Virus record (IMG/VR): IMGVR_UViG_2778261087_000007
Strand: one strand, 5' to 3'
Source: a virus
Lineage: Duplodnaviria; Heunggongvirae; Uroviricota; Caudoviricetes
DNA length: 36,849 nt
Shown here: in pieces, positions 26,626 to 35,787 of the stretch
How positions within the stretch are numbered: the stretch's first letter is position 1
Layout: every line of letters begins with the position of its first letter
Translations under genes and position numbers: made by a program
The notes under the pieces: generated by a model
Seen by the model: only the letters and a program-made list of their open reading frames with translations
What the model was told of the DNA's origin: nothing
Databases searched by the model: none

Positions 26626-27053
26626 TGTGATGTTCTCCGGTGTTGTGTCGGCCTGGCGAATGAATTGCGTTGTGGTGAAAAGACCATTTCCGCCAGGGCG
26701 GCCTTGCGATTGACGACATTCAACATTCTGGCCAGCGCTGCGTTGTGTTTGTGTGCCTGTTCTTCGTGGTACTTCTGCATGATTTTCCCTGCAGGTGTGC
26801 ACGGCTCCGACTCCTCCGGCGAACGGCGGGTACGAACTGAGACAATCCAGCTCTTATGTTCATTTCCCGGCCGTCTGTTGAGTATATCTGTAATGGTGGT
26901 TTTCGTGGTGCGGTCAGGATTGACCACTGTGATTTCCAGTTCATCGCCGGGTTGTGGTCTCGTGGCAATGTTGTTCAGAGTCAGTAATGGCGTGCGCTGG
27001 CGCATCATGTTGTCAAAGCGCTGGCGCTGCATGGTGCAGTAAAAACGGGTCAT
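26622..27053 (-). CDS. hypothetical protein downstream of replication gene
   Basis: 143 aa; ATGA overlap with the replication gene stop. Confidence 0.5.
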   Translation of the reverse strand: MTRFYCTMQRQRFDNMMRQRTPLLTLNNIATRPQPGDELEITVVNPDRTTKTTITDILNRRPGNEHKSWIVSVRTRRSPEESEPCTPAGKIMQKYHEEQAHKHNAALARMLNVVNRKAALAEMVFSPQRNSFARPTQHRRTSQ

Positions 27054-29578
27054 TGTGGCCCCTCCGTTTTCTGTGCAGGGTTGAGCTCAATGCGGCGGGT
27101 GTTGTCGTTCCAGTACGCGGTGCGCCCGTCATCCAGGAGAACACGGGCCCCGTTACGCACGGAAATAATGGCTGCGTCAGGCAGTTGTACGCCCAGTGCA
27201 TCGAGTTCGCAGGTGATTTGTGCGGTGATGTGTGGCTCTGCTGTCAGTGCGACATCCACGCGAACGCCGTCAGTGGGCGCACTGATGCCGCCGTTTTTCA
27301 CGGTTTCTGTGTCAGGTGGCGGGTTTTTCAACTGCCGGGTGAGTTGTTTTCTCTGTACCGGTGTCAGCGACCTCAGCCATTCGGTTAAATCACCTTCCGG
27401 CAGGGTAAGTCGTTGCTCCCTGCGTCTGTCCTGTTGCCCTTCTGGCGTGGCATTACTGGTTAAATTCTGGTCATGGGGACAGTTATTGCCACGAGTCCAA
27501 GGGGCGACAAAGTCGCCCTCAACGTCAAAATCAGTTTCGCTGGCGCTGTCTTCACCTTCCGGCTTACGTCTGACCAGTTTCCAGGTGTCCGGATGGGTGC
27601 ATATGGTGTACTGCTCCCCGAGTGACGGTGCACGGACACCGTAAATACGTTGCGGAAATTCGCCGTAGTCGTTGGCCTCTTCGGCGGTTTCGTATGCGGT
27701 GCGGACCAGGTACGTGTTGCGGGGAATGAGTACACCACCCTGCCTGGTGATGTAGGTGGCAAAACATCCCACATCAGCGGCGGCCAGTATGGCGTCAATG
27801 TCTTCATTATCGAGGCGCTGTGGTGCCTTCGGGTTACGGGCTATCTGCCCGGCAAGACGGCGGAGTTCGCGCCATACCTGGCGTGGCGGGATACCGAAGA
27901 ACTGGAACTGGCGGATGCGGTGAAGGGTCGCCCAGCCGATGGCGTTCTCCACGGTTTCTGCCATTGTTTTGCCTGATTCCCTGTCTGCGTATGGTTTGCC
28001 GGTTTTCGGGTCATTCCCCATAAATACGCTGGCGTCCAGGTTCTTACCGATATAGGTCGCGATATAGCTTGCCGGGGTGCCTTTTGCTGGGTCGATTTTT
28101 TCGCATTTAAAACGCGGGGAGATATCATCACCCAGCTCTGCACGGTCCTCCCTGATGGCGGCGTTGCGCATGATTTCAGTGATACGGGCTTCGTTTTCCG
28201 GACTGGTGAATACCAGCATGTGCCAGTGCGGTGTGCCGTCGTGGTGAGGCTCCACGGTGCGTACACCGTACCAGCCCAGCCCGGCTTTGCTGATGGCCTT
28301 GCGGACGGCAGCGAAAAATCTGTAAACCAGGTAATCACTGGCATCGCGTACCGTTGCCCCGCAGAATTTCGGGTTCAGGCTGCCGTCATCGTTCACGCTG
28401 TGAAAACGGGAAGGGGCGGTGACGGTGACGAAAAACGCCACATCGCCGCGCGCTTCGGCGACCTGCTCCATTCCCCGGACGCAGGCCATCATCTCGTTGC
28501 GACGGTTGCGCGGATTGGCGAGTCCGGCCCAGTAGATATCCTCAAGGCTGAACCGCTCTCCCTCTTCGTTCTCGACATCCCAGGCTTTCAGAAAATCGCG
28601 GGTGCGCTGGCGTTTTTCGCGCCAGTCCAGTAACGCTTCATGGCTGATGTATACCGACTCCTTACGTGACACCAGACCTGCGGCGCGTAACAGCTCTTCC
28701 CGCCAGATGTCGCGAAGGTGTCTTAACTGACCGTTCCACCAGTTCGCGCAGGAAAGACGCATGACTGCACCCGGCACCTGTTCCAGGTCGGGGGCGGTGC
28801 GGCGGTCGGGTCTGATTTCCAGCGACGGCCAGCAGGGCGGGGTGACACCCAGTTTTAACGCCATATGTGCCAGCGGCTGGTAGGTCAGCAGCCAGGTGTA
28901 CAGGTCATCATCCCCCTTTCCGGTCCTTTTGATGGCCTCATCACATGCGCGCTCCAGTGCGGCGGAAAATGCGGTGGCGGTCAGGGTGGCAAGGCGCTGA
29001 ATGTCGTCGCGCTCCAGTTGCGGGAGTATCAGGAGTTCATCCAGTCGTTCGCGGGCAGCGGTGGCCTTAAATGCTGTAGTGGCAAACCGTTCATTCACCT
29101 GTCTGATGCGTTTCAGACGGGCGCGCAGCCCGTGGCGAACGAAGTTATCCGCTGCGTATGCGCTGTTGTTCTTAAGTTCTTTCTGACGGGCATCGTCCTG
29201 TTTGCGTCTGAAGAACGCCAGCCTGCGAATCAACGGTCCGGCGAGAAAGGCCGGAAGGGCGCGCAGCTCTGCCATGGCCTCGGATACCAGCGTGGGTGGG
29301 TTATCGCGTCTGTACCTGGCCAGCTTTTCCAGCCGTATCTGCCGCTCTTCGTCGTGATGAAGGTGCGAATTAATCTGCCTGCCTTTTTCTGTGCTTGTCA
29401 GGAAGACGACGGTTTCTTCATCCAGCCGGGCATTAATCCGGATGTCTTCGTTGATGTAGCTCTGAATTGCCCTGCGTAATGCCGTCGGCTTCTGTGGTAA
29501 CGCTCTGCCGAAGGTTTCCGGGTCGATAACGGGCAGTGGAGCGTTCCATGACCAGGCCCATTCGCGGTTGGTGTTCAT
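27050..29578 (-). CDS. rolling-circle replication initiator, gpA-like
   Basis: about 842 aa; HUH-type motif PHWHMLVF and paired tyrosines YIATYIGKN; ATG at 29578 preceded by GGGGAG (track start is GTG at 29587). Confidence 0.85.
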   Translation of the reverse strand: MNTNREWAWSWNAPLPVIDPETFGRALPQKPTALRRAIQSYINEDIRINARLDEETVVFLTSTEKGRQINSHLHHDEERQIRLEKLARYRRDNPPTLVSEAMAELRALPAFLAGPLIRRLAFFRRKQDDARQKELKNNSAYAADNFVRHGLRARLKRIRQVNERFATTAFKATAARERLDELLILPQLERDDIQRLATLTATAFSAALERACDEAIKRTGKGDDDLYTWLLTYQPLAHMALKLGVTPPCWPSLEIRPDRRTAPDLEQVPGAVMRLSCANWWNGQLRHLRDIWREELLRAAGLVSRKESVYISHEALLDWREKRQRTRDFLKAWDVENEEGERFSLEDIYWAGLANPRNRRNEMMACVRGMEQVAEARGDVAFFVTVTAPSRFHSVNDDGSLNPKFCGATVRDASDYLVYRFFAAVRKAISKAGLGWYGVRTVEPHHDGTPHWHMLVFTSPENEARITEIMRNAAIREDRAELGDDISPRFKCEKIDPAKGTPASYIATYIGKNLDASVFMGNDPKTGKPYADRESGKTMAETVENAIGWATLHRIRQFQFFGIPPRQVWRELRRLAGQIARNPKAPQRLDNEDIDAILAAADVGCFATYITRQGGVLIPRNTYLVRTAYETAEEANDYGEFPQRIYGVRAPSLGEQYTICTHPDTWKLVRRKPEGEDSASETDFDVEGDFVAPWTRGNNCPHDQNLTSNATPEGQQDRRREQRLTLPEGDLTEWLRSLTPVQRKQLTRQLKNPPPDTETVKNGGISAPTDGVRVDVALTAEPHITAQITCELDALGVQLPDAAIISVRNGARVLLDDGRTAYWNDNTRRIELNPAQKTEGPQ

Positions 29579-29583
29579 GGCGC

Positions 29584-29997
29584 TCACTCCCCGGCAGTTG
29601 CCCGTTGAAATGCGGCACGGTACAGCACAAGAAGGCGCCGGTATTCGTCAATAAAGCCTTCTGCCGTTTTAATCCCTTTCACTGCCACGCTGTGGGTTGT
29701 CATGTCCAGTACGAGCGCCATTTCTGACGATGACCAACTGATTACGCTGTGGTCGTGCCCGTTGATGTGGAACAGGCCCAGATTCAGGCTGTGATTCAGG
29801 TCTCTGACGTCAACACGGTAACGGTCATCAACGGTGAAGGAGAAATCACCTGATGTGGTGATACTGCTGGCTGCCTGTTTACAGGCGCGGCGGTAATAGT
29901 CATGCCAGTCATTGAGGCGGGAGGCGAGGTGTGGATCCACCGACCACATCCAGTTAAAAAAATCCTGAATATCTGAAAGTTCCTTAACGTTCTTCAT
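29584..29997 (-). CDS. hypothetical protein upstream of replication gene
   Basis: 137-aa ORF whose stop overlaps the replication gene start region. Confidence 0.5.
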   Translation of the reverse strand: MKNVKELSDIQDFFNWMWSVDPHLASRLNDWHDYYRRACKQAASSITTSGDFSFTVDDRYRVDVRDLNHSLNLGLFHINGHDHSVISWSSSEMALVLDMTTHSVAVKGIKTAEGFIDEYRRLLVLYRAAFQRATAGE

Positions 29998-30065
29998 GTG
30001 AACCTCCGGTAACAGACGTGCGGAAGCCTCCCGCGTACGGGTGCGGGATGGCTTCAGGATGTTGT

Positions 30066-30293
30066 TTAGTGGTGGTGTTGCTGGTTGATAAGGTTCTGCA
30101 GTTCCGCGAGATCATCCGCCAGGTAGCTGAAAACAGCGGCACAGTAACGGTTTGACAGGGCGTGAGTGCGCTCATGCAGCATATTGATGTGCATGATTTG
30201 CGCGACGCGTGATGCGCGGAAAAGTCTGCGGTTGATTTCGGTGCGGATGTGAAGGCGCTCAGCGCGGGCGCGCTGTTGTTTGCGGTTTGCCAT
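30066..30293 (-). CDS. small basic hypothetical protein
   Basis: 75 aa, Arg/Lys-rich N-terminus, ATG with GAGG about 9 nt upstream. Confidence 0.45.
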   Translation of the reverse strand: MANRKQQRARAERLHIRTEINRRLFRASRVAQIMHINMLHERTHALSNRYCAAVFSYLADDLAELQNLINQQHHH

Positions 30294-30470
30294 GGTGTGG
30301 CCTCGTATGTAGTAAGTTTTAAAAACTCACCATCCAGAGCTGCGAAACTGTGGGTGGCGAGACGTACGAGGTTCGCAGTACCGGCTACATACGATCCCGG
30401 CCCGACCGAAGTCGGCCCCGTACGCCCCGCCATAATTCTGATGCGAAAAAGACGTGGCAATGCAGTACGC

Positions 30471-30493
30471 ACAAAAAAACCGCTGGCGCGGTT
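30471..30493 (-). terminator. intrinsic terminator downstream of dam
   Basis: On the minus strand: stem accgc/gcggt with 4-nt loop followed by 7 T. Confidence 0.6.
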
Positions 30494-30581
30494 GTGCGCG
30501 TATGTAGTCAGCAGGCTGCGAAACCCGGCACCCGTTTTATAAGGTGCAGCGGGAATGTAACCCGACTGATTACGGCATGGC

Positions 30582-30631
30582 AAGCGGTTTTTTTGTGTGT
30601 GCATGGCGATTACTCAGTCCGGTAGCAGTTC
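30582..30631. repeat. direct repeat copy A (50 bp) spanning the dam stop
   Basis: aagcggtttttttgtgtgtgcatggcgattactcagtccggtagcagttc; identical to copy B except T7 versus T5. Confidence 0.85.
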
Positions 30632-33040: not shown

Positions 33041-33120
33041 TGTTTTTCTCCGTTTTCAAGATGAGTGAATTCCTCCGCGGGTGCGGATTGTTTGCTGGTT
33101 TTCCTGTTTAATCTGGCGTT

Positions 33121-33246
33121 TTATTTACGGCGTTTTTCGCCAGTAAATAATGATTCGATATCTTTTACGGAATCAATAATCCTTACGATGCCAATCGCGC
33201 AGAGCACGGAAATAATAAGAATCAGCCATGAGATAAATATATTCAT
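33121..33246 (-). CDS. small membrane peptide (41 aa), not in the ORF track
   Basis: MNIFISWLILIISVLCAIGIVRIIDSVKDIESLFTGEKRRK; single hydrophobic helix plus charged tail; ATGA overlap with the stop of the upstream 81-aa gene. Confidence 0.4.
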   Translation of the reverse strand: MNIFISWLILIISVLCAIGIVRIIDSVKDIESLFTGEKRRK

Positions 33247-33488
33247 GCTGCCACCTGTGAATAATAAGGTTCGATAATGTCAGAACCGTTAAACAGTTCT
33301 GCCACAATGCTTTTTAATTCTTCCTGTGCTTCTTTGTCGTCGCTGGCAAAGGCATGAATAAACAGTCCATAGATAGCCTGTTCCATTAATTCGCGTGCAG
33401 TTACGTCTTCCTTCACTCCCAGCTCTGCCAGGCGGAAGTGATAACGTTCCAGTGCATGGTTCACCAGTGTTTTATAGGCTTCGTTCAT
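33243..33488 (-). CDS. hypothetical early-region protein
   Basis: 81-aa acidic ORF, ATG start. Confidence 0.45.
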   Translation of the reverse strand: MNEAYKTLVNHALERYHFRLAELGVKEDVTARELMEQAIYGLFIHAFASDDKEAQEELKSIVAELFNGSDIIEPYYSQVAA

Positions 33489-33507: not shown

Positions 33508-33858
33508 TCACCTGCGATATTGAGGATGCTGAAAACTACGACCGCTGATTAATCGGTCTGCTGTTCTTAATGCTTCGTGCAATGTGAAATCCTGTCCGAA
33601 CTGGTCATCACCGCGAGTCAGGTAATAACAGGTGTTTCCGGTAATCGGGTTGCGTGCGCCTCTGTGTATGACAATTCCGGCATCATTAATCAGCCAGGTG
33701 TGTTTACCGGTTTGTTTAACCAGATACCCGTCAGGTGTGGCGTGTGTTTCCTGCAGGCTGTAGCGTTTTGCACTGACAGCACTGGTGGAGAAACGGTTAG
33801 CGTGGCGTTCTGCTCCGTTGCGGAAGCGTTGCTGTGAAGAATTGTGCTGTTGCTTCAT
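33508..33858 (-). CDS. hypothetical early-region protein
   Basis: Start placed at MKQQHNSSQQ (33858); track ORF extends to 33906. Confidence 0.4.
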   Translation of the reverse strand: MKQQHNSSQQRFRNGAERHANRFSTSAVSAKRYSLQETHATPDGYLVKQTGKHTWLINDAGIVIHRGARNPITGNTCYYLTRGDDQFGQDFTLHEALRTADRLISGRSFQHPQYRR

Positions 33859-34000
33859 ACAAAAATATCCCGCTGCTGTTGCGAATTTGTGCCGGGTTTT
33901 AACCATGCCCGGCGCATGGTTTTGTGGTATTTTCCCACCGCCCGCAGTCTTGAAGGGTCTGTAAAGGGCGCATGTTTAACAAACCACAAATGAGGTTTAT

Positions 34001-34237
34001 ATGACTCAAAAATCAGTACCTGTTTATACGCCCAGTGAACTTGAGTGTTTGAGCGTTAATAATCATGCCTGCCTACGTTTCCATTATGATTTAGGTAACG
34101 ATGCTGAGTTACCTAAAGCTGGAGAGTTGTTTACGGCCTTAACTCTTGAGCAAGCAAAAGATCTTGTTGTTTTTCTTCAGCAATACATCTCAAAGGCTGA
34201 GATTGCAGAATCCTTAAGCTCTAAATCACGTCATTGA
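34001..34237 (+). CDS. small hypothetical protein on the opposite strand of the early operon
   Basis: 78 aa; ATG preceded by GAGGT at 5-nt spacing; 3' end overlaps the convergent minus-strand gene by about 7 nt. Confidence 0.45.
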   Translation: MTQKSVPVYTPSELECLSVNNHACLRFHYDLGNDAELPKAGELFTALTLEQAKDLVVFLQQYISKAEIAESLSSKSRH

Positions 34238-34722
34238 TTCATGAATCCGAGGAACTTCCCTTTTTTGAAGTACCGCCGGTTCATTTTTACTGAGTCAACC
34301 TGAAGGCTTTGGCTTTCTTTTATATCGGGGGTGGCAGTCCCCGATATATTTCGTGATTCAATTAACATTGATTTGTTATTCATAATCTGCCTGTAAAGTT
34401 CCAGGGCTTCTTCGGCAGGAAAACGGAGCATGACACCGCATGCAGGTTCTAAAATCATTCCAATAGTTCCTTTAGCATCATCACGACAAAAATGACCGTA
34501 TTCATCGTCGTGACGCAGGGTGACATCTTTCAAATCTTCGCCATTCTGAAGCTTTGATTTTAATGCCATCAGGCCAGAGAACGTTCTGTGTAATTCGTGG
34601 TAGTCAACGCTGATTTCAACCTGTGGTTTACCCGGAAAAACCAGCAAAAGCTTCTGGTGTGGTTTTTCGTTTTTCAGGGTTTCCAGTCGTTCCAGTAGTG
34701 CTTTGTCTTCGTGGTTTGTCAT
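34231..34722 (-). CDS. hypothetical early-region protein
   Basis: 163 aa from MTNHEDKALLERL (ATG 34722). Confidence 0.5.
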   Translation of the reverse strand: MTNHEDKALLERLETLKNEKPHQKLLLVFPGKPQVEISVDYHELHRTFSGLMALKSKLQNGEDLKDVTLRHDDEYGHFCRDDAKGTIGMILEPACGVMLRFPAEEALELYRQIMNNKSMLIESRNISGTATPDIKESQSLQVDSVKMNRRYFKKGKFLGFMNQ

Positions 34723-34803
34723 TTCAAAGCCCCAGCTACAGTAACCATGCATCTCGCTGTTCTTTCTGGCGTGCAAAGAATGCGTCGACGCTATTGATGT
34801 TGC

Positions 34804-35331
34804 TTATGATAAATCGCTCTCGTGTTCCCTGCGTTTTTCCAGTTTTGAGCTTCTACCCATATAAACCCGTTTTCCGTTAACGGTTTGGCAGTCTTCTTTG
34901 TCTGCTGGAGAGAACTTTCTTTTCTGGCGGTCATACGTCCAGTAGCTTTTCCAGTTGTGCCATTCTGGTGGTTCGCACTCTGGTAGTTCGTCGGCCAACT
35001 TGTCCCACTCTTTGGCGTTAAACCACCATACGCCGTCTGAATCTTCATCTTCCGGGTTTGTACGTGTTTTATGCCCTGGCATTTGTCCACGTGCCACGGC
35101 AGTACGTAGTGCCAGTTTTGTTAACCCGACATATGCAGCACCTTTTTCCAGCGAGCAAAGTCCGGCGATTGGTCCATCTAGTCGAAGTGTTGCTCCTCTT
35201 TTGTAAGTGCGACGAGGTTTACTTTCCTGGTGTTCGCCATCGTTGGCGGCGTTAATGGAGTCGCTTGGTGCGTCACTTTCTTGAAGTGGCGGGAGGTCAG
35301 ATAACTCTTTATCGGCAATGATGTTCCGCAT
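34804..35331 (-). CDS. Cox-like excisionase / switch regulator with N-terminal extension, uncertain
   Basis: 175 aa divergent from the C repressor; segment VGLTKLALRTAVARGQMP...GVWWFNAKEW resembles the P2 Cox HTH region; ATG preceded by AAGAGGA. Confidence 0.45.
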   Translation of the reverse strand: MRNIIADKELSDLPPLQESDAPSDSINAANDGEHQESKPRRTYKRGATLRLDGPIAGLCSLEKGAAYVGLTKLALRTAVARGQMPGHKTRTNPEDEDSDGVWWFNAKEWDKLADELPECEPPEWHNWKSYWTYDRQKRKFSPADKEDCQTVNGKRVYMGRSSKLEKRREHESDLS

Positions 35332-35445
35332 TTGTTATCCTCTTGCGTTGGTGCGCTTATCGCGCCTTGTTATGGTTTGTTTTGGTTTGTTTTGGTTTGT
35401 AAAGATAATCGTACGGTTATCTTTGTGCGAGAGGTTAATACTCAA
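35332..35445. promoter_or_regulatory. immunity switch region (divergent promoters and operators)
   Basis: Three tandem tggtttgttt units (35373-35402) and near-perfect palindrome GATAATCGTACGGTTATC (35404-35421) between the divergent cox-like and C genes. Confidence 0.55.
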
Positions 35446-35787
35446 ATGGTTATCTTGTCAATAGACTATGCGGAAAAGTTGCGTCAAATACGTAAGGCAG
35501 AGGGGCTAACACAAAAGCAGTTTGCTGATATCACAGGACTATCTTTAGCAGCCATAAGGAACTATGAATCAGGGCAAAAAAGCGCCAGAGCAAAAATCGT
35601 TGAGACTGTTTTGCAGGTAGATCGATTCGAAAAGTATATGTTGTGGTTATTAAAGGATAAAACGCTACCTGCCGCCGGGCAAATAGCCCCGGCTCTCTCT
35701 CTTGATGGCTCTTCTCAGTCGGAGGGCGATCAGGCTTCAACCGACGCTATCCAAAAATCACCCCGATCAGGCCGCAATGCTGGCTGA
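35446..35787 (+). CDS. immunity repressor C (P2 C-like)
   Basis: 113 aa; LTQKQFADITGLSLAAIRNYESGQ HTH and FEKYMLWLLKDKTLPAAGQIAPAL closely parallel P2 C (..YYESG.., ..FTKYTLWFMTNQ..GQIAPAL). Confidence 0.8.
   Translation: MVILSIDYAEKLRQIRKAEGLTQKQFADITGLSLAAIRNYESGQKSARAKIVETVLQVDRFEKYMLWLLKDKTLPAAGQIAPALSLDGSSQSEGDQASTDAIQKSPRSGRNAG

Follow-up and report, generated by a model that had tools for sequence, protein, structure and literature searches.

A gene for a 41-amino-acid peptide was found on the minus strand at positions 33121 to 33246 of the window, the 36,849-nucleotide stretch of DNA analyzed here, where it directly follows a DUF4754-family gene. This interval is almost certainly a protein-coding gene under purifying selection, and its product is very probably inserted into the membrane. 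The best explanation of the evidence as a whole, to which we give slightly less than an even chance, is an early, coupled inner-membrane peptide that acts through binding of its helix to a membrane target.

The element that carries the gene is a Xuanwuvirus (P88-like, Peduoviridae) prophage of the P2 family, roughly 34 kb of double-stranded DNA, beside the serS gene of Escherichia coli. Positions 1 to 2400 contain E. coli serS and, after it, a region annotated as a Hok/Gef family protein in RefSeq relatives; the prophage is thus integrated beside serS and adjoins a type I toxin locus. Further along the window are structural genes, a gene for the GPA replication protein (27050 to 29587), a D12 methyltransferase gene, and an Ash-family gene, and the other end holds a Cox-like regulator (34804 to 35331), an HTH repressor (35332 to 35787), and an integrase (from 35842). 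The local gene order, starting from the cox-like gene, is a 181-amino-acid open reading frame (ORF), a DUF4761-family gene, the DUF4754-family gene, the peptide gene, an 80-nucleotide gap, and a gene for a 92-amino-acid protein. The DUF4761-family gene (33508 to 33906, minus strand; Pfam PF15958, E = 2.8e-45) keeps its position in relatives from E. coli and P88. The DUF4754-family gene (33243 to 33488, minus strand; Pfam PF15946, E = 6.7e-17; phrog_2549) encodes a helical protein of 81 amino acids. The peptide gene lies within the Cox-to-A operon, which is read from the early promoter in P2 and 186, and orthologous loci of E. coli, P88, Citrobacter phage Shae_phiSM, and P884B11 likewise carry the gene downstream of Cox, in the operon of the replication genes. 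By synteny with P2 and 186, we infer that the gene is expressed early, although an opposite-strand ORF (34001 to 34237) interrupts the operon of this window between cox and DUF4761.

The reading frame begins with an ATG at 33246-33244 and ends with a TAA at 33123-33121, comprising 41 codons plus the stop, and its product is MNIFISWLILIISVLCAIGIVRIIDSVKDIESLFTGEKRRK. The TGA stop codon of the upstream 81-amino-acid gene occupies 33245-33243, so that peptide start and DUF4754 stop overlap within a single ATGA (33243 to 33246, minus strand), which is identical in all 88 related loci. A Shine-Dalgarno (SD)-like AGGTGG (33251 to 33256, minus strand) lies within the 3' end of the DUF4754 gene, 4 nucleotides before the ATG of the peptide. 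Its duplex with the 3' end of the 16S rRNA was calculated at -5.9 kcal/mol, among the top 7.5% of random window positions, and every variant among the relatives contains an SD-like element of -4.2 to -9.3 kcal/mol, compared with a background mean of -2.2. The first-pass annotation, made from the letters of this DNA and a list of its reading frames, had described a clean ATG-to-TAA frame of 41 amino acids with a start overlapping the upstream stop; this was confirmed, with the frame placed on the minus strand. Its further proposal, that the peptide is coupled to an early gene, gains support from the invariant ATGA and from the place of the gene in the Cox-side operon of a P2-family prophage. 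The ATGA couples the peptide gene translationally to the DUF4754 gene. ATGA overlaps are a frequent form of packing in this operon, and coupling is for that reason not proof of a functional link between the two products.

Short ORFs are abundant in this region, with 60 of at least 25 amino acids overlapping the surrounding 4.5 kb, and an open frame of 41 codons alone is therefore not above chance. What raises the peptide frame above chance is its conservation among relatives. The frame is intact in 88 of 88 related loci, with a length of 37 or 41 amino acids, and these loci represent 37 distinct DNA variants. Among the 37 variants, variable columns fall 22, 11, and 35 times at the first, second, and third codon positions, respectively. 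The ratio of nonsynonymous to synonymous polymorphism (pN/pS) is 0.27 in the peptide frame and 1.2 to 2.0 in four of the remaining five frames. The fifth, an antisense frame that has its third codon positions in common with the peptide frame, gives 0.35 and is interrupted by stops in over half of the variants. The peptide frame is the sole frame open in all variants, and the pN/pS of the adjoining DUF4754 gene is 0.53. An antisense ORF at 33065 to 33277 on the plus strand was considered and rejected, as it is closed in most relatives. The two features whose absence the first-pass annotation held would speak against a gene, a translation signal and a reading frame conserved in relatives, are both present, the former as the SD-like element and the latter in all 88 loci.

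Beyond the stop codon, the 80-nucleotide gap (33041 to 33120) contains a 5-bp hairpin on the minus strand at 33074 to 33087, of the form UCCGC-N4-GCGGA followed by GGNNUUC. Of the 84 related loci for which downstream sequence was available, 77 contain it, whichever gene comes next. Across 16 variants, the stem stays 100% paired, a C-G pair being replaced once by a compensatory U-A pair, and the loop is variable. The position corresponds to that of the internal early-operon terminator (tR1) in P2 and 186, whose terminators are followed by a similar GGNNUUC; the hairpin here has, however, no clear U-tract. Read on the opposite (plus) strand, the hairpin together with a T-run was flagged as terminator-like by a consensus scan. 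Candidate identities are a weak terminator of the tR1 type, a hairpin for processing or stability, a palindrome in the DNA, and a terminator of antisense transcription. Given where it lies, the first early segment closes with the peptide gene as its last cistron.

The conserved hairpin 33 nucleotides beyond the stop, together with the commonness of chance short ORFs in this region, is what might be cited for a nonfunctional peptide, the frame being either a chance ORF or a leader whose translation controls the hairpin. The distance from stop to hairpin is, however, 33 to 46 nucleotides among the loci, which is beyond the occlusion reach of a terminating ribosome, and a leader peptide for the hairpin was rejected on this distance and on the selection acting at the amino acid level. 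With a pN/pS of 0.27, 16 invariant or near-invariant residues, and open frames at 88 of 88 loci, the selection pattern already contradicts a nonfunctional frame of either kind, which we consider highly improbable.

The gene is the orthologue of P88 gp07 and of WP_267237464.1, and the distribution of the family is narrow among phages and broad among E. coli strains. A tblastn search of 50,697 phage records detected the peptide in 14, all of them Xuanwuvirus (P88-like Peduoviridae) or unclassified relatives, and in neither 186 nor lambda. The peptide was also found in 270 IMG/VR contigs, and a homologue is carried by 1,108 of 5,426 complete E. coli genomes (~20%), including O157:H7. Orthologues at 73 to 78% amino acid identity are P88 gp07, WP_267237464.1 (41 amino acids), and WP_000021655.1 (37 amino acids, O157:H7); all three lie directly after a DUF4754 gene with an ATGA overlap and share the design of a transmembrane helix plus tail. 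Five full-length representatives gave profile E-values of 3e-21 to 7e-12. While a word-indexed homologue search returned 5 clusters, an exhaustive profile search against 1.8e9 protein representatives yielded 16 matches, all of which belong to the peptide's own family, as members, fragments, or frameshifted copies.

The description of the peptide as unannotated holds only for the ORF track used at the first stage, whose size cutoff concealed a gene already recorded publicly. P88 gp07 (YP_009113050.1) is annotated as a membrane protein, PGAP calls the orthologues (WP_267237464.1 and WP_000021655.1) hypothetical proteins in every E. coli record inspected, and a coding sequence is annotated at the locus in 12 of 12 rows sampled across the 1,108 E. 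coli genomes. The gene is thus already in public annotation, outside any described family. Scans of the peptide against Pfam, PHROG, NCBIfam, and PADLOC gave nothing or sub-threshold, transmembrane-like noise (TatA and a 5TM protein, 15 bits), and a profile search of the PDB with the peptide gave 0 matches. Over Pfam, PHROG, NCBIfam, PADLOC, the PDB, and the 1.8 billion proteins together, no homologue of known function was detected, and our literature search found no paper that names the peptide and no functional work on DUF4754, DUF4761, or Xuanwuvirus. Small membrane proteins are often missed or left "hypothetical," and this one is present in about a fifth of complete E. coli genomes.

Codons 3 to 21 (33184 to 33240, minus strand), encoding IFISWLILIISVLCAIGIV, form a transmembrane segment according to hydropathy and an AlphaFold2 helix, with a Kyte-Doolittle mean of 2.9 over the 19 residues. 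Codons 22 to 41 (33124 to 33183, minus strand) encode an amphipathic, basic tail, RIIDSVKDIESLFTGEKRRK, which is predicted to be cytoplasmic; it has a hydrophobic moment of 1.6, with residues 22 to 36 amphipathic. AlphaFold2 modeled the peptide as a single helix from residue 2 to residue 40 with a mean pLDDT of 82, rising to 91 to 94 in the hydrophobic part. All of the 35 protein variants have 0 charged residues at positions 1 to 21 and 3 to 6 Lys or Arg residues after position 21. The hydrophobic core thus has no Lys or Arg before it, and Arg, Lys, or Gln at position 22 follows it. By the positive-inside rule, the uncharged first 21 residues and the Lys/Arg-rich tail indicate an N-out, C-in orientation, and the peptide is strongly predicted to be a single-pass inner-membrane protein with this topology. 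The architecture of one hydrophobic helix plus a charged tail that the first reading had ascribed to the peptide was borne out by the hydropathy, the charge counts, and the AlphaFold2 model. Reading the peptide as a lipoprotein or a secreted peptide was rejected, as it contains neither a lipobox ([LVI][ASTVI][GAS]C) nor a basic n-region with an AxA-type site; the residue preceding C16 is L, A, V, I, or F, and C16 itself is replaced by M or F in 7 of the 35 variants.

Among the 35 protein variants, 11 positions are invariant and 5 more are nearly so. The invariant residues include M1, S6, W7, L10, G19, I23, I24, I30, E31, and F34, and the near-invariant ones are F4, A17, I20, K28, and T35, with A17 and K28 each present in 34 of 35 variants. 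Three residues of the hydrophobic segment, S13, A17, and G19, are small residues of the helix-packing type. Conservation has a periodicity of approximately 105 degrees per residue, which was equaled by 11 of 5,000 shuffles, a statistic that is only indicative because the compared sequences are related and not independent. This periodicity suggests one conserved face running along a continuous helix, and the conservation is that of a specific pattern, beyond generic hydrophobicity. Not all of the tail takes part in this constraint. In the P88 clade, a TAA at codon 38 shortens the product to 37 amino acids and removes the KRRK, with the old stop codon still present 12 nucleotides downstream, and this part of the tail is therefore dispensable.

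Compared with P88, the peptide is 78% identical, DUF4761 71%, DUF4754 41%, and Cox 30%; the high value for the peptide is partly due to the composition of a short helix rich in Ile and Leu. In this comparison, no other early protein of the region is as well conserved as the peptide. Its 78% identity against the 41% of DUF4754 points to constraint from a slowly evolving partner, for example, host membrane machinery. Taken together with the invariant face, the high identity relative to the faster neighbors argues for a specific interaction rather than generic hydrophobicity.

In several P88-type copies (P0010, P0011, P0014, and P0020; phage 503458, L089:366-458), the A6 run of codons 27 to 29 (GTAAAAAAG) or its close vicinity is the site of a frameshift, which swaps the tail and spares the transmembrane helix. 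Either sequencing errors in the homopolymer or true slippage variants could account for these frameshifts. In phage 503458, the DUF4754 gene and replication genes are broken as well, so the record is degraded or rich in errors, and its frameshift was not counted as evidence.

A partner nearer at hand would be the DUF4754 protein itself. DUF4754 and the peptide are common to the same 14 of the 50,697 phage records, and the pair is kept while the flanking genes change: upstream of DUF4754, the relatives carry DUF4761, a P88 gp05-type gene, or other small genes, and downstream of the peptide, at least five unrelated genes were found. The 92-amino-acid gene of the window and P88 gp05, whose homology would have meant a rearrangement, were compared and rejected as homologues. 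On this basis, the peptide could be a membrane anchor, its cytoplasmic helix tethering the soluble, helical DUF4754 protein in a two-subunit complex whose fixed proportion is set through translational coupling. The shared occurrence in 14 records, the ATGA that is invariant over 88 loci, and the persistence of the pair while the flanking genes are exchanged for members of at least four or five unrelated families are all in keeping with such a complex. All occurrences fall within one phage genus, however, so that the co-occurrence may equal shared ancestry, and DUF4754 diverges much faster than the peptide (41% versus 78% identity) without a matching change in the latter. Furthermore, one locus, L012 (IMGVR_UViG_3300021279_000026), mixes a P88-type DUF4754 with the other type of peptide. 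We therefore consider the anchor unlikely.

The L012 locus is a recombinant module in its own right, in which a P88-type DUF4754 is joined to the 41-amino-acid, E. coli-type peptide; the exchange point accordingly lies at or near the ATGA junction. For DUF4754, a homologue search returned 3 proteins, the AlphaFold2 model is helical and of low confidence (pLDDT 69.5), and a Foldseek search of the model against the PDB gave nothing below E = 5; none of these offered a clue to function.

The first-pass annotation had likened the peptide to kil-like or toxin-like phage effectors. This likeness proved to be an architectural analogy only, with no homology to Kil, DicB, Fil, or type I toxin families. 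Specifically, searches of Pfam, PHROG, and NCBIfam and the tblastn search of phage records gave no homology to Kil of lambda or Rac, to DicB, or to 186 Fil. Kil of lambda and Rac has its small size in common with the peptide, and both Kil and DicB are soluble proteins directed at FtsZ or MinC. The fil and dhr genes of 186 are host-directed genes that end the first early segment before tR1, and the peptide gene is likewise last before its hairpin; their products, Fil (75 amino acids) and Dhr (66 amino acids), nevertheless have no N-terminal transmembrane helix and no similarity to the peptide.

Type I toxins (Hok/Gef, TisB, Ldr, Ibs, and ShoB) are closer in form, being small and built, like the peptide, on one hydrophobic helix. 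A membrane-damaging toxin of this kind (Hok-, TisB-, Ldr-, or holin-like) would oligomerize and dissipate the proton motive force or form pores, bringing about early host shutdown or abortive infection. The size of the peptide and its N-terminal transmembrane helix with a polar or charged tail fit type I toxins, and S13, A17, and G19 could mediate self-association. The surroundings of the gene, on the other hand, fit such toxins poorly, since it is not a stand-alone locus but a coupled cistron of a long operon. The peptide gene starts inside the upstream gene and showed no promoter-like site on the minus strand, no Rfam antisense RNA was detected at the site (E ≤ 1), and promoter-like sites on the antisense strand are about as frequent as chance predicts (4 found versus 4.7 expected). 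Compared with Hok/Sok, TisB/IstR, and Ldr/Rdl, the peptide locus is thus without a detected antisense RNA, a transcription unit of its own, or a family match, and it appears to lack two defining features of the type I class, the antisense RNA and the independent transcription unit. In addition, the tail is conserved in a specific residue pattern and not in its charge alone, and depolarization early in infection would damage the phage's own replication. Such a toxin is accordingly improbable.

We favor, tentatively, the binding of a membrane target by the conserved helix face. Ribosomes ending translation of DUF4754 would reinitiate at the ATGA, aided by the SD-like element, and the peptide would be made early in lytic growth. 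Its N terminus would lie in the periplasm, residues 3 to 21 would cross the bilayer, and the basic helix of residues 22 to 37 would rest at or just under the cytoplasmic face. The peptide would then act through its conserved face, made up of S13, A17, and G19 in the membrane and of I23, I24, K28, I30, E31, F34, and T35 in the tail. The target of this face may be a conserved membrane component, and a host inner-membrane protein from the machinery of division or of the envelope is the most likely candidate. That the target belongs to the host is suggested mainly by analogy and is, in our estimate, equal in probability to the explanation as a whole or a shade below it.

Several small membrane proteins provide precedents for this mode of action, by analogy and not by homology. 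LysM (SglM), the 37-residue lysis protein of the single-stranded RNA (ssRNA) phage M, inhibits the MurJ flippase by wedging into it, and in its structure a transmembrane helix leads into a C-terminal amphipathic helix that lies on the membrane surface (PMC12506998). The peptide is similar to LysM in size and in its design of a transmembrane helix plus an amphipathic helix, with no sequence similarity between the two in the PDB profile search. More generally, the proteins of single-gene lysis, such as LysM and phiX174 E, are short and have one transmembrane helix, as does the peptide. In contrast to LysM, which serves the lysis of an ssRNA phage, the peptide is the product of an early gene of a temperate double-stranded DNA phage that is expected to have its own lysis genes, and it is not the sole lysis gene of a small ssRNA or single-stranded DNA phage. 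Nearer in timing are Gp11 of the Staphylococcus aureus phage PhiNM1, an early small membrane protein that binds MurG and DivIC (PMC11237401), and gp56 of the Bacillus subtilis phage SP01, which interacts with DivIC/FtsL (bioRxiv 10.1101/2020.02.06.938217). Both are early, small, single-pass membrane proteins; they bind membrane proteins of the host and block its division or wall synthesis, although the hosts are Gram positive and the sequences of Gp11 and gp56 are unrelated to that of the peptide. Gp11, gp56, LysM, and the fil/dhr genes of 186 are thus analogues of what the peptide may do.

Following these analogues, the peptide might specifically inhibit, in the manner of a "protein antibiotic," an essential inner-membrane protein of the E. 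coli divisome or lipid II pathway, acting early and perhaps within a two-part host takeover module with DUF4754; at this degree of detail, the proposal is a speculative one that we rate as rather unlikely. If the peptide does bind a host membrane protein, it would be a naturally evolved inhibitor of 37 to 41 amino acids and a handle for target discovery, and this would give the early DUF4754/DUF4761 module of P88-like phages its first function. Should it prove to have no phenotype, the gene would be an ordinary accessory gene.

T4 Imm and Sp are early membrane proteins and offer another model for the peptide, that of superinfection exclusion, in which it would, during lytic growth, keep the DNA of phages that arrive later from entering. 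A small inner-membrane protein that is encoded in an early operon and confined to one phage lineage is compatible with this role. The peptide nevertheless bears no similarity to the exclusion families in PADLOC or PHROG, and in P2 and 186 lysogens, this region is kept off by the immunity repressor, so lysogens would not be protected. Early exclusion therefore seems quite unlikely, less so only than a nonfunctional frame, and binding of a membrane target remains our preferred reading.

A small-protein sequence identical to that of P88 was found on a 226-kb contig (L006, NZ_JBQPOM010000071.1) of an assembly named "Vagococcus sp. WN89Y"; the Gram-positive label on this assembly is probably the result of mislabeling or contamination.

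Elsewhere in the early region of the window, a 78-amino-acid ORF on the plus strand (34001 to 34237) with a GAGG ribosome-binding site breaks the operon between cox and DUF4761. It converges on the 181-amino-acid ORF of the minus strand (34231 to 34776), and the local GC content falls to 0.39 to 0.42. Neither of the two ORFs gave a family match in Pfam, PHROG, NCBIfam, or PADLOC, and together they look like an inserted accessory (moron-like) pair. At the site equivalent to 34001 to 34237, E. coli A36 contains a different gene on the opposite strand.

Finally, strong Rfam matches were found for a C4 antisense RNA (30350 to 30437, minus strand; 79.8 bits) and isrK (30473 to 30547, minus strand; 62.8 bits), along with a weak match to the c4-a1b1 target. 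The C4 and isrK matches are located inside the 5' part of the ORF at 29984 to 30604, which carries the Ash-family domain, and the region resembles a P1/P7-type C4 immunity module in a P2-family prophage.
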